This document shows positions 265 through 19,978 of a stretch of 24,068 bases of DNA, piece after piece. The notes under the pieces are model-generated. The model was not told the DNA's origin. It made no database searches and worked only from the letters and a program-made list of their open reading frames with translations. The stretch comes from a virus (lineage: Duplodnaviria; Heunggongvirae; Uroviricota; Caudoviricetes), in the IMG/VR virus record IMGVR_UViG_2778261544_000011, positions 1 to 24,068 of that record, one strand, 5' to 3'. Positions within the stretch are counted from its first letter, which is position 1, and every line of letters begins with the position of its first letter. A program made the position numbers and the translations under genes.

Positions 265-1161
265 TCAGATGAATGGTGAAACAATAATTTCCACGCGCTT
301 ATAATTAGGATTGTCTTCTCCGTTATCCAGATACTGACGTAACAGCAGTTTTTCCGCTGCGGCTCTTAACGATACGGGGACTACAATAACAGTAGGCACG
401 ATTCCCAATGGTTCACCGCTACTTCCCTTAACGGATAACATCCCGTCGTACACTTCATTAAATGTGGTTTCATTCAGTGTATCCCATGATGCCGCTGCGC
501 ATTGCCACATTGCATATCCAACGTTAAGACGCCCATCAACACCAAACAGAAAACGATTATTCAGAAACACATCAGTAGCGCCGGAATCAGTAACAGAAGT
601 TACAGCCATTGGACGACGAACTTGATAAATAAAAGGTTTCAATCCTTGACTACCATCAAATAAGTACCATAACGGCGTTGCACCTGCGTTTTTTTCTGGA
701 TTGCTTCCATAGAGGTTTGAATAAACGCCTTCACCATTAGGATGGTCAGTAGCAAAGAAGTTGTGCCCGTCAATTCCTTCTGATAAGTGCCCTTTCTTCA
801 TAGCTTCAAACAGTAACTTATCAGGGAATGCAGCTGCTTTGCGCCCGTACTGTTCAAAAACCATTGAATACTTACCATAATCATTATCTTCAAAATCCTC
901 ACGTTTAATTTGAATGCTGCTTTCAAACGTTTTATTTTTCAGAAAATAATCACGGGTTGACAGTGATTTTAACTGTCGGTCGTTTAACCACTCTTTGATT
1001 TCCGGGAAATCTTCGAGGAAGCCATAAGCACTAACTGCCGATGAAGACGTTACTTCTGAAGCAATCGTTGGATGTACAGGATTGTAGGCTTTTTTTCCTG
1101 ATTCAAACCTGGCATTAAAAGCGATAGTAGCATCAGCAATTACACAATTAATATCTTTCAT
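265..1161 (-). CDS. Mu-like prophage major head subunit (gpT-like)
   Basis: 298-aa ORF; sequence recalled as resembling Mu-like gpT major capsid proteins; lies directly downstream of an I-like protease gene with a small overlap, the Mu head-gene order. Confidence 0.6.
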   Translation of the reverse strand: MKDINCVIADATIAFNARFESGKKAYNPVHPTIASEVTSSSAVSAYGFLEDFPEIKEWLNDRQLKSLSTRDYFLKNKTFESSIQIKREDFEDNDYGKYSMVFEQYGRKAAAFPDKLLFEAMKKGHLSEGIDGHNFFATDHPNGEGVYSNLYGSNPEKNAGATPLWYLFDGSQGLKPFIYQVRRPMAVTSVTDSGATDVFLNNRFLFGVDGRLNVGYAMWQCAAASWDTLNETTFNEVYDGMLSVKGSSGEPLGIVPTVIVVPVSLRAAAEKLLLRQYLDNGEDNPNYKRVEIIVSPFI

Positions 1162-1972
1162 TTTCTTTTCCTAAAGCTATCAAATAGTCTTCTTCGCTTA
1201 CACCTGTAATGCGGCAAACAGCCAGTTGCGATTCAGTAAGCGTTCTCGGGGGTTCTTTACCTTTTACACTTACAGCCCTAGCAAAGTGTAAAAAATTACT
1301 CGTCGATTTTTCCTGCATATCAGCAAACTTCCTGAATGCATTTTCTCCAACACTTGAACACATGGACAGAAGAATATTCCGCTGGGCCGGACAGAAAACG
1401 GCTTTTTCGATATATTCATTTACAATCTGACTATGTTGTTCAGCTTGTCTTTTATTTAACGCTGTCAGCACTTCTTCAAGTGAATTAATCTCCTCCATGT
1501 TAAGTGCCAGTGCGATTTTGCTAATCGTTTGCTGAGTATTTAGTGCCGTTAGTTTTAGATTTGGTTTATTCGTTAACGCCACGCTAACGAGTTCCAGTAT
1601 TTCACCATCCTGAGAATGACGGAAAGCCGGTGAAAGGTATCTGTATTCACGGGATGTGATGAAATCTATTGCTCGTGGGGTCCATTCAACTTTTCCCCAT
1701 ACAGAACCATCATTACGAACAGCAACGTCATTAATCCATCCGGCGGCAGGAGCCTCGCCACCTTTGGGGGCAGTAACTTCTGTAGAATGTTCATAATCAA
1801 CAACCAGCGACATCCCCCGACCAGAAAACGCCTGTTTAATGCTCTGCGGATCCTTGAGCGTCCAGTGCCTTCCGTCACGCCCTTTAATTTCTGGTCCAGC
1901 TGGTAACAACTCAACCCATTCAGGAGGAGTCTTATCACCCGACAAATCAGTACATAAAGCAATTACGTTCAT
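1148..1972 (-). CDS. Mu-like prophage protein I-like (head maturation protease/scaffold family)
   Basis: ORF 1148-2005; the codon at 2005 is TTG, so the preferred start is the ATG at 1972 preceded by AGAGGAA; resemblance to Mu-like protease I family from memory; overlaps the gpT-like gene. Confidence 0.5.
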   Translation of the reverse strand: MNVIALCTDLSGDKTPPEWVELLPAGPEIKGRDGRHWTLKDPQSIKQAFSGRGMSLVVDYEHSTEVTAPKGGEAPAAGWINDVAVRNDGSVWGKVEWTPRAIDFITSREYRYLSPAFRHSQDGEILELVSVALTNKPNLKLTALNTQQTISKIALALNMEEINSLEEVLTALNKRQAEQHSQIVNEYIEKAVFCPAQRNILLSMCSSVGENAFRKFADMQEKSTSNFLHFARAVSVKGKEPPRTLTESQLAVCRITGVSEEDYLIALGKENERY

Positions 1973-1997
1973 TAGTTCCTCTGTTATTGAGTTAACC

Positions 1998-2038
1998 CCC
2001 TTCAAAACCCCTTCAAAAACGCCGTAGCGCCTTCAAAG
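1998..2038. repeat. Three direct copies of CC(C)TTCAAA(A) across the start region of the I-like gene
   Basis: cccttcaaaa (1998-2007), cccttcaaaaa (2008-2018), gccttcaaag (2029-2038) read directly from sequence. Confidence 0.5.
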
Positions 2039-2200
2039 ATATGAAGGTAAGGTGTTTGCCCATCATGAGCCAAAACACAGCCGTAATGCGTTTGAGGCAA
2101 TTCACATTTGTTAGGTGCGAAATACCCCTGATTCTATATTCATGCATTAAGTGTTTTGCTGTCAGCATCATTAGCAAATGTTCATTGCTTATCATTAACG

Positions 2201-2929
2201 TTAATTTAAGCCATAATCGCCAATGAGCGCCCTTACATGTTTTATTGTTGTGTATATCGATTTACCAGACTCTCCATACTTAATAGCCAGTTCAGCAGGA
2301 GACATAACATAACTATCTGCATACATATCTGCTTTTTTTATTATTCTACTCAGTGAGTCGGCCTTAGGTAAATAAAACTGGATTCCGCCTACAACTTCCA
2401 GAAATGCTTTTGTTGCAATAAATGTTTTTGTCGTGCCATTTACTTCTTCTTGTGGGTCTACTCCAGTTTTTTTTAATGCCGCCTCAATAGCCCCCATAAT
2501 CATAGTCACACTTTCTGGAAGAATCTTTGTTTCTTTTCTCAATAAAGCGATAATAGCAGTTTTGCGGATATGCTTAATCGGACCACCACTAAAAAAATCC
2601 GGTTCAAATTTCATTGCGTCAAGATAGAATGTTTGTTTTCCGCAAATAGACATAAATTCATTAAAGAGAGCGGTGCCTGCGACATTACAAAAAACATCAA
2701 TTTCGCACTCGCCACTCTGTTCATGTTTCACTGCGTGAAATTGTTTTTCAATCAATTTCACATGCTCACTGACTTCATTATAATTACATGCATATCCCAT
2801 TTTACTGATATAAGACATAACATCACAGATATCACGAGAAAAGCATGAAGAAACAATGAATTTATTTATCGCTGTAATATCATTGTGTGGCGGCGTTAAC
2901 ATGAGATTTTTAAAGGTTTGTTTAGCCAT
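2201..2929 (-). CDS. Hypothetical protein, AT-rich orphan gene (243 aa from the ATG at 2929)
   Basis: ORF 2201-3058; internal ATG at 2929 is preceded by GAGAAG; visibly AT-rich relative to flanking phage genes; no family recognised. Confidence 0.5.
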   Translation of the reverse strand: MAKQTFKNLMLTPPHNDITAINKFIVSSCFSRDICDVMSYISKMGYACNYNEVSEHVKLIEKQFHAVKHEQSGECEIDVFCNVAGTALFNEFMSICGKQTFYLDAMKFEPDFFSGGPIKHIRKTAIIALLRKETKILPESVTMIMGAIEAALKKTGVDPQEEVNGTTKTFIATKAFLEVVGGIQFYLPKADSLSRIIKKADMYADSYVMSPAELAIKYGESGKSIYTTIKHVRALIGDYGLN

Positions 2930-3007
2930 TATCTTCTCGCTTAAGCTTTTGCATATACCTGTGTACATTTGAGCGCGATGCGCGGTAGCCAATGCTTGCA
3001 GCAAACT

Positions 3008-3047
3008 TAACGTTATCCGCAATGTTACGATAACGATTATTGCGGAT
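3008..3047. promoter_or_regulatory. Nested inverted repeats (TATCCGCAAT...ATTGCGGATA and CGTTATC...GATAACG), operator-like, upstream of the orphan gene
   Basis: Perfect 10-bp inverted repeat separated by about 15 bp, roughly 80-120 bp upstream of the 2929 start codon; not followed by a T-tract on either strand. Confidence 0.3.
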
Positions 3048-3189
3048 ATGGGAATCAAAAATAAGTTTATCCCCGATTGTGATAAAACATAATTTTTTCA
3101 AAAAAGAACCATCTCCGTTTGCTCCGGATGCTGTGAGATTACATGGGAATTTTGGGGAAGATAGATTTACCGTTTTCCATGAAGTATGC

Positions 3190-3194
3190 ACGGA
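3190..3194. repeat. 5-bp target site duplication ACGGA (left copy) flanking IS2
   Basis: acgga at 3190-3194 immediately outside the IS2 terminus at 3195; identical copy at 4526-4530. Confidence 0.85.
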
Positions 3195-3205
3195 TGGATT
3201 TGCCC

Positions 3206-4111
3206 CTATATTTCCAGACACCTGTTATCACTTAACCCATTACTGGCCTGCTGCCGTAGATATTCCCGTGGCGAGCGATAACCCAGTGCACTATGCGGAT
3301 GCCATTCGTTATAATGCTCGAACGCCTCTGCAAGGTTCTTTGCTGCCGTTAACCCGTCTGGTTTAGGCATGACACTGATGTAGTCACGCTTTATCGTTTT
3401 CACGAAGCTCTCTGCCATGCCGTTACTCTCCGGACTCCGCACCGCCGTGTTCTTCGGTTCAAGCCCCAACATCCGGGCAAACTGCCGTGTTTCATTAGCC
3501 CGGTAGCATGAACCATTATCCGTCAGCCACTCTACTGGAGACGCCGGAAGCTCGTTGCCGAAGCGGCGTTCCACCGCTCCCAGCATGACGTCCTGTACTG
3601 TTTCACTGTTGAAGCCGCCCGTAGTGACCGCCCAGTGCAGTGCCTCACGGTCACAGCAGTCCAGCGCGAACGTGACTCGCAGTTTTTCTCCGTTATCACA
3701 GCGGAACTCGAACCCGTCAGAGCACCATCGCTGATTACTTTCTTTCACAGCCACTCTGCCGGTATGTGCCCGTTTCGATGGCGGTACAGCGAGTTTTCGC
3801 TCAAGCAACAGCGCATTCTGGCGCATGATCCGGTAAATACGTTTGGCATTGATCGCAGGCATACCATCAAGTTCGGCCTGTCTGCGAAGCAGCGCCCATA
3901 CCCGACGATAACCATATGTGGGCAGCTCTCCGATAACATGGTGTATACGGAGAAGCACATCCGTATCATCTGAGTGACGGCTGCGGCGACCATCTTTCCA
4001 GTCATCGGTTCGTCTGAGAATGACGTGCAACTGCGCACGCGACACCCGGAGACAACGGCTGACTAAGCTTACTCCCCATCCCCGGGCAATAAGGGCGCGT
4101 GCGCTATCCAC
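3206..4111 (-). CDS. insD: IS2 transposase OrfB (InsD)
   Basis: 301-aa ORF recognised as IS2 InsD from memory; DDE integrase-type sequence; overlaps the upstream insC frame as expected for IS3-family frameshifting. Confidence 0.9.
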
Positions 4112-6374: not shown

Positions 6375-7208
6375 TTACCTAGTCATATGAAGGATTTTTA
6401 CTGCAGCGTTGTTCCAGGTGACCTGATGGTGAATGCGTTTATGGCTGGCACCCATCAGTGAGATTTTTACGCACGACGGCGCATACATGACGGAATAAAA
6501 ACTTTTAACGTAGGTTCCGGAATCCAGATACAGCTCGGTCATTCCGCCGCTGTTTTTCTGCGTCTGTTTCTGCCCTAACTGGACAGCACCGATCGTCATA
6601 AACAATTCACCACGGCGACCGAGATTCGTGTACGTATTCACATCCTCGTTAATGCGCCCCATGAATGAGAACGGTCGATCAACCGAACAGATAAAGCTGT
6701 TCATTGCCTTGCGTTTCACCCATGAAGCATGGCCGCCATTGTCACCAAGAAAATCCCCGCCCTGCGACATAGCGATGGAAAGCGCAGGAATTGATTCGTA
6801 ATACGCCAGCATTTCAGAAAGGATCGCATCCAGTTTCCTTATCGGAAAATAGGCCTGGTCATAGTTGCGATCCACCCGAAACTGAAACTCGTGATAATCA
6901 TCATCGAGCTGAATGAAGTATTTACACCCGACCTTTTTTGCCAGGTCGAAACAGGCATTACGGGCGTAAAAAATTGAGCGACGATCACCGAAATTATCGG
7001 CTTCGTCAAAACGACTGGCGATTTCGGCTTTGGAAAACACCAGCACCTGTTCACCAAATTCTGCTATGTACTGATGCCGGGTTTTATCTTCATCATCAAC
7101 GACGATAAAAATTTTCCCTGTATAGCCAGCACGACGCAAAGTCCGGTAAGTCAGAACTTTGTCCGGTCGCCCATGAGTCAGAATAAAGGCGCAAAAATCA
7201 TCACGCAT
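6375..7208 (-). CDS. Nucleotide-diphospho-sugar transferase (GT-A)-like fold protein, function unknown
   Basis: ORF 6375-7226; ATG at 7208 preceded by GGGGAGGAGG; N-terminal FILTHGRPD...IFIVVDDED and later IQLDDDY resemble GT-A/NTP-transferase DxD-type motifs; no C-terminal transmembrane segment; start abuts the ParB-like stop (ATGCGTGA). Confidence 0.55.
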   Translation of the reverse strand: MRDDFCAFILTHGRPDKVLTYRTLRRAGYTGKIFIVVDDEDKTRHQYIAEFGEQVLVFSKAEIASRFDEADNFGDRRSIFYARNACFDLAKKVGCKYFIQLDDDYHEFQFRVDRNYDQAYFPIRKLDAILSEMLAYYESIPALSIAMSQGGDFLGDNGGHASWVKRKAMNSFICSVDRPFSFMGRINEDVNTYTNLGRRGELFMTIGAVQLGQKQTQKNSGGMTELYLDSGTYVKSFYSVMYAPSCVKISLMGASHKRIHHQVTWNNAAVKILHMTR

Positions 7209-7989
7209 ATTCCTCCTCCCCGCCATGCATGATCTCCACCATGCACTGCGTCATCCGGACAAAACCATTTTCAATAGCCTGCTGATAATCAATGATCACC
7301 AGTGCCGACTCTTCGAAAAGCGCCTGAACTTCAGCGGGCGCATGAGCGTAATAGTCCGCAATTCTGCTGAAATTAAATACTGTGTGGCGTTCTGCCGCAC
7401 ACAGGAGGAATTTTTCGATATCAGGCTCAAGGGACGCCGAACGTATCCGGCTGACCAGCTCCTGAGTTTTCGTATCGTCGTACAGTTCGCCGATATCCGG
7501 TTTATCGCCCGACGGCTCATAAACAGGCGTATCAATTTTCGTCGTGTACGGCTCCTCCTCATTTCCTGTACCTGGCAAAACATCCGTCAACAGTTCATCA
7601 ATTTCTGTCGGGCTGAATCCTGTCAGGGAGATATCAAAATCAGCATTGATTAGGTCCGACAGCTCCATCCGTAACAGATCTTCATCCCAGCCAGCATTCA
7701 TCGGCAGGCGATTATCTGCCAGGCGGTACGCCTTTTTCTGCTCATCCGTCAGGCCAGACAGAACAATGACCGGAACAGAATCCATTTTGAGCATTTCAGC
7801 CGCCATAACACGACCGTGACCTGCAATAATTTCGCCCTTTTCATCAATCAGCACCGGATTAGTCCAGCCGAATTGCTTAATGCTTTCTACCAGTTGTGCC
7901 ACCTGCTCAGGGCTGTGTGTCCTGGCATTGTGTGCATACGGAGACAGTTCTTGTAACGGGCGATAGACGATTTTCAATTTCTCGCTCAT
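7201..7989 (-). CDS. ParB-like nuclease domain (ParB/Srx fold) protein
   Basis: 262-aa ORF; N-terminal region with ParB N-domain-like motifs (…LSPYAHNART…GHGRVMAA…); ATG at 7989 preceded by GCGAGG. Confidence 0.7.
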   Translation of the reverse strand: MSEKLKIVYRPLQELSPYAHNARTHSPEQVAQLVESIKQFGWTNPVLIDEKGEIIAGHGRVMAAEMLKMDSVPVIVLSGLTDEQKKAYRLADNRLPMNAGWDEDLLRMELSDLINADFDISLTGFSPTEIDELLTDVLPGTGNEEEPYTTKIDTPVYEPSGDKPDIGELYDDTKTQELVSRIRSASLEPDIEKFLLCAAERHTVFNFSRIADYYAHAPAEVQALFEESALVIIDYQQAIENGFVRMTQCMVEIMHGGEEEYA

Positions 7990-13974: not shown

Positions 13975-14907
13975 ATGCACAGCGTTAATTTCTATTCATT
14001 CCGCGTCTTGACCCATAAAGGCAGTCGAGCCAGCAAAAAACTTAATGAATTGGGTTTAAGTAATAAAAAAACGGCATATGAACTTTTTGTTGATTATTTT
14101 ACTCTATATAAAAACACCCCCATCGAGTTTGGCGTATCCAAAACTAAAATATCTCTGGAACAACACGCTAAACTTCACTTTGATAACTCAAAAAAAATTA
14201 TATATGGTTATGTAAAAGTTGGGAAATATGGAGAAAGCAGTGAAATAAAAGATGTAAAACTCAAAAAAATCCACTATAGGACAACTGCTTATGATGTAAC
14301 ACTCAAAGAACGTTATATTTTAATATACCTACCAGACGCCCTTGAAGAAGGAATTATTGCATTCCACTCTTGCGATAATATTTCTGCTCGAGGTGTCCTT
14401 TCTGATTCTATCACTGAATATCTAAAAAACAAATTTCAACTCGAAGCAAGAATCAATCCATTACATCATAAGAAAATCCCTCAATATATTCTCAATTCCG
14501 AATTAAAACAAATTAAGGCTCAAGGATATAAAGCACCAAAAGACATTGCTGATTCCTTTGGTCAAAACAAAACAAACATCAAGACAGACTTAATAATAAA
14601 AGCAAACGATGGCATGTTCGGAAGTTTCAGAGATTTAAGAAACAAGAATATAGGAAACATCATTGAGATTATTGAAGATAAATGTGATGCAATAAAAGTA
14701 AGCTTACAACTCGGCAGTCGGACTGTCGTTTTCAATTATGATACCATACTAAAAAAAGGAATTTCCGCAGAGTTAGATGATAATGATCTAAAAATCGACC
14801 CATTAACAGGCATACCTGATCTAACAGCACTTCATGACACGATAAAAAACCTTTCTAATGATATATTGTTAGAACTGCATAGCGGAAACAAAGGGGTGAT
14901 TATATGA
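13975..14907 (+). CDS. Hypothetical soluble protein (310 aa), RexA-like candidate, first gene of a two-gene cassette
   Basis: AT-rich ORF opposite in orientation to the flanking phage genes; ATG preceded by AAGGA; N-terminal NFYSFRVLTHKG weakly recalls the RexA N-terminus (unverified). Confidence 0.6.
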   Translation: MHSVNFYSFRVLTHKGSRASKKLNELGLSNKKTAYELFVDYFTLYKNTPIEFGVSKTKISLEQHAKLHFDNSKKIIYGYVKVGKYGESSEIKDVKLKKIHYRTTAYDVTLKERYILIYLPDALEEGIIAFHSCDNISARGVLSDSITEYLKNKFQLEARINPLHHKKIPQYILNSELKQIKAQGYKAPKDIADSFGQNKTNIKTDLIIKANDGMFGSFRDLRNKNIGNIIEIIEDKCDAIKVSLQLGSRTVVFNYDTILKKGISAELDDNDLKIDPLTGIPDLTALHDTIKNLSNDILLELHSGNKGVII

Positions 14908-15458
14908 ATAAAATAAATGTACTGGGTGTAATAATAAAACACTACAAAACAATGTCAGATCAGCGTGGAACAATGTTGATGAGCGACATTATCGTACATT
15001 TTATTGTTCCGTTATCTCTTTCTTTCGTTCTGTGCTGGACATACGGAATAATGAAACCGGCAATTGCTTCCGTCTTTGTTAACTTCGGGGCTATTACAAC
15101 AGCACTATTAATGAGTGCAGTAATAATGATTTATGAACAAAAACAAAAAACCATCACTAAGATATCAGACATAATTGAAGGAAACAAATCCCGAGACAAA
15201 TTGATATCATTAAACACTAACAAAACCATATATGAGCAGTTATGCCACAACGTCGCTTATGCAATATTAACTTCAATAGTATTGGTTATATTTTCAGTGA
15301 TAATATATTTCCTGCCTGACAATGCAGTGGATTTAATGAAATGGTATTTTCGCGCACCTGCATATATTGTTAGCTTTTTAGCCTATACATCCTTTTTTAT
15401 CACTGTTATAACGTTCTTAATGGTAATAAAAAGATTTAGCACAATTTTAGATAATTGA
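14904..15458 (+). CDS. Integral membrane protein with four predicted TM helices (184 aa), RexB-like candidate
   Basis: ATGA start/stop overlap with the upstream gene; AGGGGTG ahead of the ATG; four hydrophobic segments (about residues 26-48, 53-77, 117-137, 150-175). Confidence 0.6.
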   Translation: MNKINVLGVIIKHYKTMSDQRGTMLMSDIIVHFIVPLSLSFVLCWTYGIMKPAIASVFVNFGAITTALLMSAVIMIYEQKQKTITKISDIIEGNKSRDKLISLNTNKTIYEQLCHNVAYAILTSIVLVIFSVIIYFLPDNAVDLMKWYFRAPAYIVSFLAYTSFFITVITFLMVIKRFSTILDN

Positions 15459-16910: not shown

Positions 16911-17576
16911 TCAAACAAAACCAGCCGCTTTCCGGCGCTCATATTCCTGTTTCAGCAACTCAATTGGCGTTGGTCCCGACGGGCGTTCTGGTGCTGCCAG
17001 TTGCCGCCGTACGGGCGGAACGCTGAAGCCATCACCAACATGCTTTGCCCATTTCGCCAGTTGCCGTTCTGCAAGCCGTTTTAACTCCCCTTCGGTCATC
17101 TGACGCTCAATCCCCTTTGAACGCATCTCGAGGCAAATGTGATACAGCACAGGCTGAGTCCATGGGTATTTATCGCTTCCGTCGTATCGCCAGGACTCAT
17201 TGCGCCAGCGCCGGTACTCCTCCATCACGGCATCCACCGTCAGACCGAATGGATTGGCTCCGCTTTCCGAAATCAGCGCCACAAACTCAGCCAGGTCCGG
17301 AGGCCATGTTTCACCCGCCCGGCAGCGGTTCATGCACTGGCGGCAGACCTGACGGATTTGCTGCTCAGTCATCGCGCCAATCTGTGCAATCCAGAGCTTC
17401 GAAGGTGCGGCCCCGTTCTTCTGGGTCCAGCGGTTCGAATAAACCTCCCCCATGAGTTCCCACAGCTTCCACGCCGTTTCCGTCGCTGATAAATCCGTTT
17501 TCACGTTCCCACTGCTCACGTGCTGCCCGAATTTCCTGAACGGCCCGTGATGCGGTGCCGCCTGGTGCTGCTGCAT
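16911..17576 (-). CDS. Replication protein P-like (DnaB helicase loader, lambda P family)
   Basis: C-terminal ...[40 protein letters not shown]... aligns by eye with lambda P; start ambiguous (ATG 17576 with GGGGTGA SD, or internal ATGs at 17453/17372); overlaps the O-like gene. Confidence 0.65.
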
Positions 17577-18489
17577 GGCTCACCCCCTTGCTGACTGGTT
17601 TAACCTGCGCCCTGACGTGATGTACGTGACGGGCGAATTTCTGCTCCCACTGAACCTGCGTGAAAACTTTCCCCTCCGCTGCCCAGTAGTCCCGGAAGGC
17701 GGCAAGTTCAGCAGGTGTAAATTCCGGCTCCGGCAGAGCCACTCCCCACAGTGCAGCCCGCCGTCGAAAATCCGGCGACGGATGCCAGCCATCGGTCATC
17801 GGAAATTTCCCAATGGGTTCGCTCAGGCCTTCCAGGTAATCAGGTTCCGCTGCCTGCAACGGCACGCCATTTGCCTCACTGGCCGGAGCACTCTCGCGCA
17901 CGCGCGCGTTATGTGTGGGGTTTATATATCTGTTATCTGTTATCTGGATACCGCATGACAAAGCGTTAGCCTTATCCTTAGGCTTATCCTCAGGCAAAGG
18001 GATTGCCTTATCGAATGCCATCCCCAAAGCCTCAGAAACACCGTAGGACGCGGCTCTCAGCGATTCCCTGGCCTCCCATTTGAGAGGGCAATCAGGAATT
18101 AAAGCGAATGCCTTTGCCCAGGATTTAATGACATTTATCGAGTTTGGCGGATTGTGTTTCGCAGCATTCGGGAGCCAAAAAACTCTGGCTTTGATATCTG
18201 CTTTCACCATGCCAAGATTCATGGCTTCGCCTAAGGCTAAGTCAAAGGCTTCGATATCCCACCCCAACTCTTCAGCCATTGCTGCCCGCCCGGCTTTAAA
18301 TAACCCAGGAATAATCCCGGTAAATGGACTGGTCAGCAGATAAATAAACAAACTCTGTCCACTTGGAGGCAGAGGAGATAACGCCCTAAATTTGGGATCA
18401 TCCCATATCGTTATTTTTACCTTGCGATAAGGCTCATTGTTTGCCTTAGTTTTTGGCATGGGATTTGGCATGTTTTTAGCCTTAACCAT
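17365..18489 (-). CDS. Putative replication initiator/replisome organiser (O-like by position)
   Basis: ORF 17365-18543 (first codon TTG); ATG at 18489 preceded by GAGG; immediately upstream of the P-like gene; contains an iteron-like repeat array. Confidence 0.5.
17923..18012. repeat. Iteron-like direct repeats with a TTATC core inside the O-like gene (candidate origin)
   Basis: tatctgttatctgttatctgg (17928-17946) and gccttatcct-tag-gcttatcctcagg...gccttatcg (17968-18012). Confidence 0.5.
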
Positions 18490-18568
18490 AATTGCCTCAT
18501 CTGGTGTCGAACCTTCCTCCGGATATAATCTGTGATTCCCCAATCAACAGAACCAAAGGAGGTTCGAC

Positions 18569-19024
18569 ATGTCTTTAATGGCTGTTTGCCAAAAAATTAA
18601 AAATCACATGCGCACTGTGTACAAAATTAACCAGCACGACCACGACATGGTTAACCTGGTAACATGCAGGGCTATAGTTCTCACCCGCTTCCACCTGATT
18701 CTTACAAATCACTCACGGGATTCTCTCCTGAGCCCCAGTAGCTATGATTCGCTGGCGAGATTGCTATACCAGGCAAGTGAAAAACGTATTACTGATCCCT
18801 TATCTGTTTCCCCTGTCCTTGCTCTTCACATTCTGGAAGACGCTCTCTATGACCCCCGTCAGGAATGCGACTATCAATTTCTTGAAGCTGAGAAATCAAT
18901 GAGAGAATGGTTCGTTGAATATCGCGAACGGCAGCAAAAGTTACCCTCAGAGTATTCAGAACTTCCGCAACTTCGCTGGAGTGACCTTCCGAACGAATTA
19001 TTTGCTCTGACCCCAGAAAATTAA
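18569..19024 (+). CDS. Hypothetical protein (151 aa) encoded antisense to the early-right operon
   Basis: Textbook SD (AAGGAGG, 6-nt spacer) before the ATG at 18569; TATAAT hexamer at 18526-18531; overlaps the competing minus-strand ORF 18789-19202. Confidence 0.4.
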   Translation: MSLMAVCQKIKNHMRTVYKINQHDHDMVNLVTCRAIVLTRFHLILTNHSRDSLLSPSSYDSLARLLYQASEKRITDPLSVSPVLALHILEDALYDPRQECDYQFLEAEKSMREWFVEYRERQQKLPSEYSELPQLRWSDLPNELFALTPEN

Positions 19025-19221
19025 TTCTTGGGGATAAATCGTCCATCACTGAGCGCAGGCTAAGTTCTGCGCTCTGAAGCTTCCGAACCGAAGTTTCTGT
19101 ACCCCAACCCGCAATTTCTGCATTTTTTGCAAGTTTCAGGATCCAGTCTCGTAGTTCGCCGGGAGTAAGATTTCCGGCATTTATGTACGGTTTGATTTTC
19201 ATTATTGGATACCCTATTCAA

Positions 19222-19644
19222 TCAATGCACTACAACAGAATCGTCGGACGCTCCACCACCGCTGAAATGTGCTTTCCGGTAAACGGCCTGGACTGCATCA
19301 TCATGCGCATCAATTGCCGTACTCAACGCTTCCTGCGCCGCCAGTAATGCACGGCGTTCCAGGGTATCGAAGATGCAGAGTCGGTGACGCAGCTCGCGCG
19401 GAAGAATTGCCAGAACCGCAGGGATCAGTTTCTGAATTTTTTCCCTTTGCGCTTTCGTTTCACCTTTTAACCAACGGTGATAGATGTTCTGCTGATTATT
19501 CCAGTCCTTGCCTGGTACCAGGGGCAATTCGCCGCCCCCCTGGCGCAGATATTCTTCAGTAATTGCACTGGCTACCCATGCCTGCCCTTTTTCAGCAGCC
19601 AGGGCTAACAACACTGATTCGATGTGCTCATGCTTGATTTTCAT
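19222..19644 (-). CDS. ydaT: YdaT-like protein (Rac prophage YdaT family)
   Basis: 140-aa ORF starting MKIKHEHIESVLLALAAEKG..., recalled as closely resembling K-12 Rac YdaT; ATG preceded by AGGAG; follows the ydaS-like gene. Confidence 0.6.
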   Translation of the reverse strand: MKIKHEHIESVLLALAAEKGQAWVASAITEEYLRQGGGELPLVPGKDWNNQQNIYHRWLKGETKAQREKIQKLIPAVLAILPRELRHRLCIFDTLERRALLAAQEALSTAIDAHDDAVQAVYRKAHFSGGGASDDSVVVH

Positions 19645-19903
19645 GAATCAACTCCTGTGCATTTTGTGTGTTAGCCTTACATCCAACAGGTAAACCGTCG
19701 GTTGGGTTAGGGTAGATATCAGGCCGAAGTTCATGAGGTGTAACCTCGAAATTCGTAGCCTCTGCGATACGCAATACCTTTTCAGGGCTTAACTGACTAC
19801 GTCCAGTAGCAACGAGGCTAATCATTGATTGCGAACAACCAGCCAGCGCGGCCAAACAAGACTGTCGTACACGATTTTTTTTCAAATATTCATCTAATGT
19901 CAT
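19628..19903 (-). CDS. ydaS: Cro-type/YdaS-like helix-turn-helix protein
   Basis: ORF 19628-19942; preferred start is the ATG at 19903 with AAGGTGA; HTH-like QSCLAALAGCSQSMISLVATGR; divergent from the repressor gene. Confidence 0.55.
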   Translation of the reverse strand: MTLDEYLKKNRVRQSCLAALAGCSQSMISLVATGRSQLSPEKVLRIAEATNFEVTPHELRPDIYPNPTDGLPVGCKANTQNAQELIHENQA

Positions 19904-19978
19904 AAGGGTCACCTTAGTAATGCTCATCAAAATATTAACCATACTAATTTAAATGATCAATACCTATATCAGTTTGAG

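Follow-up and report, generated by a model that had tools for sequence, protein, structure and literature searches.

The virus record IMGVR_UViG_2778261544_000011 of IMG/VR (Caudoviricetes; positions 1 to 24,068, the whole stretch of 24,068 nt being called the window below) is a lambdoid, Rac-like E. coli prophage. We analysed its replication initiator gene and a set of short repeats within the coding sequence of that gene, which a first-pass annotation had described as an iteron-like array marking a likely replication origin inside an O-like gene. The initiator gene and the gene following it in the direction of transcription are:

17365 to 18489, minus strand: replication initiator gene (374 amino acids, 1125 nt), start MVKAKN, with GAGG 5 nt upstream
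16911 to 17372, minus strand: lambda P-like helicase-loader gene, adjoining the initiator gene downstream and overlapping its stop by 8 nt

The initiator protein fell into PHROG 1408 'replication initiation protein' (1e-91), and its sole match in a Pfam search was the DnaT DNA-binding domain (8.5e-18). The downstream gene matched Pfam Phage_lambda_P (PF06992, 4.5e-16) and PHROG 109 (1.9e-62), its product shares 25% identity with lambda P (E = 6e-7), and it is annotated as 'replication protein P' in E. coli genomes. Together, the PHROG 1408 match, the DnaT-like C-terminal domain and the adjoining P-like gene bear out the earlier assignment as a putative initiator. The label 'O-like' holds for position and layout by analogy but not for the protein itself, for which no similarity to lambda O was detectable (no PF04492, Phage_rep_O, match at E ≤ 0.01; BLASTP E = 1.1). 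Against the NCBIfam DnaT equivalog NF002770 the protein scored 95.9 bits, below the cut-off of 201, with coverage of positions 81-157 of the 179 profile positions.

The protein consists of a winged-helix N-terminal domain (N-domain), a disordered linker and a DnaT-like C-terminal domain (C-domain) that binds single-stranded DNA (ssDNA). In an AlphaFold model built on 58 homologs, with residues counted from the ATG at 18471, the N-domain (residues 25-157) was confident with a predicted local distance difference test score (pLDDT) of 81-97 and had the topology helix-strand-helix-helix-hairpin; residues 160-215 were disordered, and the C-domain was again confident. A DNA-binding winged-helix fold of the N-domain is confidently predicted by this model. 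A sequence search against solved structures returned matches to the DnaT part only.

The start of this gene is annotated differently in several database entries. Automatic RefSeq/GenBank starts for the initiator in two relatives (L032, 10376-11290; L114, 1348-2262) lie 70 codons downstream, giving 304 instead of 374 amino acids, so that the conserved winged helix loses its first half, and an equal truncation was found in several database proteins (P0027-P0032, P0052 and P0054). Conservation of the N-domain across phyla begins at the residues YRKV, well upstream of the short annotated start.

Repeats within the initiator gene

The repeats form three clusters of boxes, followed in the direction of transcription by a 7-bp tandem that overlaps an easily melted tract and by a palindrome:

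18426 to 18484, minus strand: array 0, AAGGC/GCCTT boxes TAAGGCTAA, TAAGGCAAA and TGAGCCTTA at the 5' end of the gene
18218 to 18253, minus strand: array 1, three 12-bp units GAAGCCTTTGAC TTAGCCTTAGGC GAAGCCATGAAT (Tandem Repeats Finder period 12)
17950 to 18021, minus strand: array 2, six 12-bp units with the core AAGSC(T), the proposed main initiator-binding (iteron) array
17926 to 17946, minus strand: 7-bp tandem CAGATAA CAGATAA CAGATAT (Tandem Repeats Finder, 2.9 copies, 100% match)
17921 to 17950, no strand assigned: candidate DNA-unwinding element, the 30-mer with the lowest stability in the gene
17895 to 17908, no strand assigned: GC-rich palindrome CGCGCGCGTGCGCG, located where the shared C-terminal module begins

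Read on the coding strand from 18021 down to 17950, the units of array 2 are ATGGCATTCGAT AAGGCAATCCCT TTGCCTGAGGAT AAGCCTAAGGAT AAGGCTAACGCT TTGTCATGCGGT, and they include the GCTTATCC units of the first-pass annotation. The array occupies nt 469-540 of the 1125-nt gene (41-48%) and codes for the low-confidence, disordered linker between the two domains (pLDDT 40-52). It is separated by ATC from the 7-bp tandem, and the coding strand then reads CAGATAA CAGATAA CAGATAT ATAAACC from 17946 down to 17920 before entering a GC-rich stretch. The period of the tandem is out of frame, and it is therefore not a peptide repeat. The overlapping tract 17921-17950 has a nearest-neighbour free energy of -30.9 kcal/mol, compared with -34.5 kcal/mol for the next segment in the gene, which places it in the top 0.9% of the window; its GC fraction is 0.37 and that of its flanks 0.68.

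Array 1 lies within the coding region of the N-domain and codes for helix H3 of the predicted winged helix. In array 0, the first and second boxes are 36 bp and the second and third 12 bp apart. Its pattern AAGGC...AAGGC...GCCTT is retained in ten sequences of the enteric clade despite a varying peptide, and it is the least well supported of the three box clusters.

On the plus strand, the segment 17920-18012 reads GTTTATATATCTGTTATCTGTTATCTGGATACC...GCCTTATCCTTAGGCTTATCCTCAGG...GCCTTATCG, with three GCYTTATC units between 17969 and 18012. Tandem Repeats Finder reported an array of 12-bp period at 17966-17995 (88% match) and the tandem as TATCTGT at 17927-17946. The tandem TCTGTTA units noticed in the first pass were thus confirmed. 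The spaced units described with them are real and clustered in the gene, but their boundaries had been drawn wrongly, the actual units being the six 12-bp units of array 2. Likewise, the extent given for the whole array, 17923-18012, does contain repeats but is too narrow, as the element reaches further, to the box clusters of arrays 1 and 0.

The complement of GCYTTATC, GATAAGSC, occurred at four sites in the window compared with 1.18±1.06 expected window-wide, and all four were within the initiator gene, three of them on the minus strand (17969, 17981, 18005) and one on the plus strand (18426). Exact TAAGSCTAA was found five times in the window, four of them in this gene. The fifth copy, an exact TAAGGCTAA at 19671-19679, lies in the Cro-like gene (19628-19942) and may be an outlying box or a chance match.

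We permuted the synonymous codons of the initiator gene 2000 times while keeping its protein sequence and codon usage fixed. The gene contained four GATAAGSC compared with 1.03 expected (four reached in 7 of the 2000 permutations), four TAAGSCTAA/TTAGSCTTA compared with 0.25 (never reached) and eight AAGSCT or AGSCTT compared with 2.97 (reached in 34). Identity at a lag of 12 bp across array 2 was 33/60, compared with 24.1±2.1 under permutation (1/2000). As the excess persisted when synonymous codons were shuffled, the repeats of the window are real, beyond chance and beyond what the encoded peptide requires.

Several other candidate elements were discarded. The palindrome at 17895-17908 had been regarded as a counterpart of the lambda origin palindrome; it is part of the coding sequence of the C-terminal module, and its role in an origin is doubtful because it is not retained in the Chris1/Pluralibacter clade. 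A DnaA box TTATCCTCA (17984-17992, matching at 8 of 9 positions) was judged to be a chance match, the window containing nine such matches against 5.9 expected. A promoter scan of 17300-19300 gave two promoter-like sites (1.9±1.6 expected), which is chance level, and among the six terminator-like sites of the same segment (2.4±1.5 expected) none could be tied to the element.

Boxes and tracts in relatives

The N-domain has 68 database homologs that are 47-83% identical over this domain to the window protein, which itself carries the consensus YRKV...GQ.L..YLLT...AEELGW..EAF...PNV(V/I)(K/R)SW...PEC.LK. In a collection of species-representative genomes, relatives were found at 25 loci spanning Enterobacterales (including Salmonella), Stenotrophomonas, Burkholderiales, Desulfovibrio, Acidobacteriota, Planctomycetota and Spirochaetota, and 271 viral contigs of IMG/VR also encode them. 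Of 5426 complete E. coli genomes, 37 carry the window-type initiator (at least 80% of a 1.3-kb query matched). Among isolated phages the N-domain occurred in 2 of 50,697 records and among plasmids in 2 of 72,556, so that no studied phage could be used as a reference.

Two of these records deserve separate mention. PP818812.1 (L001, 'Actinobacillus phage vB_Apl-pPE4') was deposited with Actinobacillus pleuropneumoniae as host; its replication module is 98-99% identical to that of the window prophage and shows the Rac-type order recE, kil, dicA-like, ydaT, and judging from its sequence the host assignment appears doubtful. CP100067.1 (L114, p727A3-47K) is a 47.7-kb circular, non-mobilizable E. 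coli 'plasmid' that has a P-like gene and encodes a 100% identical N-domain. The record probably represents a related phage in its circular form, and its circularity is weakly consistent with an active replicon.

At nearly all 25 loci, three to seven AAGSCTT boxes, mostly 12 bp apart, lie at the end of the N-domain coding region, and homologous arrays were also present in the viral contigs examined. AAGSCTT is a self-complementary 7-mer, and the 12-mer of the family is close to GAAGCCTTCGCG; in enterics the box with its flanks reads GATAAGSCTWA. The boxes of the relatives are followed by ATGCCTAAT, then by (CAGGAR)4-7 and then by unrelated C-terminal domains. The 160.8 kb of the 25 loci contained 144 AAGSCTT, of which 76 fell into a 260-bp linker zone and about 45 into a second cluster, located 170-230 nt into the N-domain; all others occurred at the chance rate. 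This second cluster is the counterpart of array 1; it is present in nearly all homologs, with two to four AAGSCTT at 12-bp spacing. The window has both clusters at homologous positions and phased by 12 bp, with one strict 7-mer and the others of the form AAGSC(T/A).

In 500 permutations of synonymous codons within each open reading frame (ORF), 28.0±4.7 family boxes were expected (maximum 44), compared with 122 observed, indicating that the constraint acts on the nucleotide sequence and not on the protein. In two codon offsets, the boxes code for as many as 18 different tripeptides, and switches between Ala, Gly and Pro leave the DNA core intact. Successive boxes were spaced by exactly 12 bp in 58 of 94 cases, and the arrays of relatives, those of the enteric clade included, differ from each other by whole 12-bp units. 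Within the enteric clade, where the amino acid is invariant, all six sequences used the same codon at 9 of 15 array columns, compared with 12 of 74 other columns of the N-domain (Fisher p = 0.0009); in array 1, this applies to each of the codons GCC, GAC, GCC, TTA and GAA.

The tract behind the boxes shows a constraint of its own. In the (QE)n tracts all 72 Gln codons were CAG, compared with 86 of the 141 in other parts of these ORFs (p = 2e-12), and the Glu codons varied freely. The tandem of the window stands at the position of the (CAGGAR)n tract of non-enteric relatives. Variants of the tract are CAGATAA x3 in the window, CAGAAAG CAGTAAA CAGTAAA CAGATCT in other enterics and (CAGGAR)4-7 in other phyla, and relatives retain the 7-bp CAG period despite different amino acids.

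These results bear on the alternative that the repeats are the nucleotide shadow of a flexible, low-complexity linker (KA/KP/DK and QE repeats), perhaps homogenised by slippage and with no function in cis. Array 2 does code for disordered protein, the 12-bp and 6-bp periods are in frame, and EAF, KAF and KAL predominate among the peptides encoded by the box instances. Against this stand the permutation tests, which were significant for the family and for the window by itself, and the synonymous sites frozen in the arrays. Simple homogenisation by slippage is argued against by the invariance of CAG next to freely varying GAA and GAG. Moreover, the 7-bp tandem of the window and the GTCACG arrays of a sister initiator type (10-11 bp; see below) are out of frame, and one box cluster lies in a well-folded helix rather than in a linker. 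We consider this explanation improbable.

The same constraint on nucleotides rather than peptide would also suit an element acting at the RNA level, in which self-complementary AAGSCUU units form an mRNA structure that tunes translation or stability of the initiator message; units in opposite orientation could pair through their core. In many relatives, however, all units have the same orientation (RAAGCCTT five times in L025), which would leave a central mismatch, and strict 12-bp phasing next to a conserved tract fits recognition of duplex DNA better. Such an element is very improbable, even more so than a linker shadow.

A candidate prophage origin at a module boundary

Downstream of about 17949, the DNA of the C-terminal half of the gene is 85-95% identical to, and shared with, that of 1303 E. 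coli genomes. The genes sharing it have unrelated N-terminal halves, which belong to DUF1376 in Rac and to a third type in the O157 prophages. Homology with the Rac- and O157-type genes stops at about 17927-17949 on the N-terminal side of the palindrome (megablast and blastn homology ended at query positions 628-650 and 70), which constitutes a mosaic breakpoint.

Each initiator type carries its own repeats directly before the shared junction of ACAGAT(A) tandem and AT-rich DNA. In the O157-type gene of E. coli FORC_044 (L005, 1576-1898), GTCACG occurred ten times on the coding strand, compared with a single copy on the other; of the ten, nine were in two arrays with 10-11-bp spacing, one within the DNA coding for the N-domain, the other at the linker. 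The initiator gene of Rac contains the palindrome TGTTYRAACA two or three times. Rac has been reported to have an active origin, oriJ, and oriJ may be equivalent in position to the element of the window.

A Klebsiella-group relative keeps the window-type N-domain, the boxes, the 7-bp tandem and the AT tract and combines them with a different C-domain and a DnaC-like instead of a P-like loader; the pairing of C-domain and loader is the same in YdaU/YdaV of K-12. Because N-domain and boxes are retained together when C-domain and loader are swapped, they form one module. The locus is thus made of two modules, N-domain with boxes and C-domain with loader, and as in lambdoid O genes they meet at the AT-rich tract.

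Taken together, the boxes and the tract are likely to be the initiator-binding array and the unwinding element, and hence the core of the prophage replication origin within the initiator's own gene. The proposal of the first pass that the origin lies in this gene is supported, as far as sequences allow, by the position of the element, the least stable tract, the boxes shared across phyla and the type-specific repeats in sister initiators. In the mechanism that we propose, the N-domain of the initiator would bind the phased boxes and form a nucleoprotein complex like the lambda O-some. This complex would strain and open the adjacent tract at 17921-17950. The DnaT-like C-domain, the opened strand or both would then engage the P-like loader encoded downstream, by which the host DnaB would be brought in. 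The origin would at the same time be the module boundary at which N-domain with boxes and C-domain with loader are exchanged between prophages.

A different view of the same boxes is that they are a cis element other than an origin, recognised by the initiator or by another factor and serving either as an operator array for autoregulation or copy control or chiefly as a conserved linker promoting the recombination of modules, and that the origin lies elsewhere, for example in the intergenic region 18490-18790. The homology breakpoint between initiator types falls exactly at the boxes. Three separate box clusters, one of them over the region of the start codon, would suit autoregulation, and a 10-nt perfect inverted repeat (18505-18514 and 18560-18569) is located upstream of the initiator gene. 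Boxes and a least stable tract at the domain boundary are, in contrast, the layout of proven lambdoid origins, and every initiator type has repeats of its own at this position. A mere recombination joint would leave unexplained both the 12-bp phasing and the presence of the boxes across phyla with unrelated flanks. Origin and recombination joint are compatible roles and not mutually exclusive. An operator or joint in place of an origin seems unlikely to us, although less so than the linker shadow or the RNA element.

Several observations weigh against the assignment as an origin. In the window, strict AAGSCTT was found once compared with 0.58 expected, which is not significant, and the boxes are degenerate (AAGGCA, AAGCCTA, AAGGCTA, TTGCCT); the claim for the window therefore rests on relaxed cores, 12-bp phasing and synonymous-site conservation. 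A period of 12 bp is a multiple of three, so that some contribution of a peptide repeat is possible. As the boxes are part of, or adjacent to, the coding DNA of the N-domain, the co-occurrence of the two does not count as independent evidence of binding. The canonical recognition helix of the N-domain, H3, is acidic. The closest PHROG for the N-domain is 'DnaD-like', and the winged helix of DnaD serves oligomerisation rather than DNA binding; some DnaD-like or replisome-organizer initiators have the origin in their own gene, for example G38P of SPP1. In most relatives the (CAGGAR)n tract, with a GC content of approximately 50-65%, differs from a classical AT-rich unwinding element. Finally, we infer both origin function and binding from sequence, layout and the analogy with lambda.

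A more far-reaching interpretation is that the window belongs to an undescribed, multi-phylum type of origin whose cis elements reside in the initiator coding sequence, with AAGSCTT boxes phased by 12 bp in two or three clusters, one of them within the codons of the predicted recognition helix, followed by a CAG-periodic tract. The tract would then be not a passive AT-rich unwinding element but a sequence-specific single-strand recognition element that the initiator reads during opening, comparable to DnaA-trios or to the binding of Rep to the unwinding element. We put this forward tentatively, as a possibility that is clearly less probable than the origin assignment itself. No description of an origin type with AAGSCTT boxes and a CAG tract was found in the searchable literature, the coverage of which is incomplete, and novelty is accordingly not proven.

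The element offers a concrete candidate origin for a widespread, uncharacterised class of Rac-like prophage replication modules. It would extend the lambda principle, in which the origin lies in the initiator gene and the specificity module is swapped at the origin, to initiators unrelated to O. A short DNA box that is conserved in coding sequence across phyla is also a clean example of dual coding. In practice, the signature of boxes and tract could help to locate origins when prophages and metagenomic viral contigs are annotated, the module could serve as a compact new replicon for vector building, and RefSeq entries whose start sites cut into the winged helix could be corrected.

Neighbouring genes and known systems

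Upstream of the initiator gene are YdaT/CII-like, Cro-like and repressor genes. Two overlapping ORFs on opposite strands, 18569-19024 (plus, 151 amino acids) and 18789-19202 (minus, 137 amino acids, PHROG 37051), are both annotated in PP818812.1; at most one of them is likely to be real. The window is mosaic, because even the best match among complete E. coli genomes covers no more than 61% of it. At 265-4111 on the minus strand, genes for a Mu-like major head protein (gpT), a Mu-like protease I, a Mor-family activator and an IS3-type transposase (rve) accompany the Rac-like early region. At 6375-7989 (minus strand), a TET-associated glycosyltransferase gene (PF20691, 8e-37) adjoins that of a ParB_N/Srx-domain protein which matched the PADLOC model 'MTase_II' (1e-38), and the pair may be a DNA-modification module of the prophage. 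Two genes of 310 and 184 amino acids on the opposite strand (13975-15458, plus), the second apparently membrane-like, had no Pfam or PADLOC match. They are located between an ead/Ea22-like gene and the hok region, in a segment containing several of the least stable 30-mers of the window, and are possible moron or defence cargo.

The origin of lambda lies in the middle of gene O and consists of iterons and an AT-rich tract, the single-stranded form of which is bound by O (PMC7466680). The iterons occupy nt 349-433 of the 900-nt gene (39-48%), with annotated 18-bp sites at 20-24-bp spacing. The element of the window resembles that of lambda and of Stx phages (lambdoid origins of the type found in lambda, 933W and P27) in its location about halfway along the initiator gene, where N- and C-domain meet (41-48% in the window, 39-48% in lambda). 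Further similarities to lambda are the order of boxes and easily melted AT-rich tract (17921-17950 in the window) in the direction of transcription, the gene of a P-family helicase loader directly downstream, and the combination of N-terminal half and boxes in one exchangeable specificity module. Our results also indicate differences between the two systems. The initiator of the window is not a homolog of O, and its C-domain is DnaT-like. Its gene contains three box clusters where lambda has one, made of 12-bp units with a self-complementary core of 5-7 nt instead of four to six 18-bp inverted-repeat iterons every 20-24 bp or so. The comparison with lambdoid O iteron arrays suggested in the first pass hence holds for position and layout and fails for length, spacing and sequence of the boxes.

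With Rac (oriJ, YdaU-YdaV) and the O157-type prophages, the window shares the succession of racR/ydaS/ydaT-like genes, initiator and loader. Together with the O157 type, Rac-SA53 is approximately 90% identical to the window in the C-terminal half at the DNA level, and the ACAGAT(A) tandem and AT-rich junction with short repeats just upstream are common to these types. In contrast, the N-domains are unrelated, and the repeats differ, with TGTTYRAACA in Rac and GTCACG at 10-11 bp in the O157 type.

DnaT (primosomal protein I) differs from the window protein, which is without the N-terminal part of DnaT and has its C-domain fused to a phage initiator N-domain. Iteron plasmids with the initiators RepE, TrfA and pi resemble the window in combining a winged-helix initiator with phased direct-repeat sites and an adjacent unwinding element, these sites being predicted ones in the window. 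Rep is reported to bind the single-stranded DNA of the unwinding element (PMC4081077), in a sequence-specific manner and on one strand, and such binding may serve as a model for a sequence-specific role of the CAG-periodic tract.

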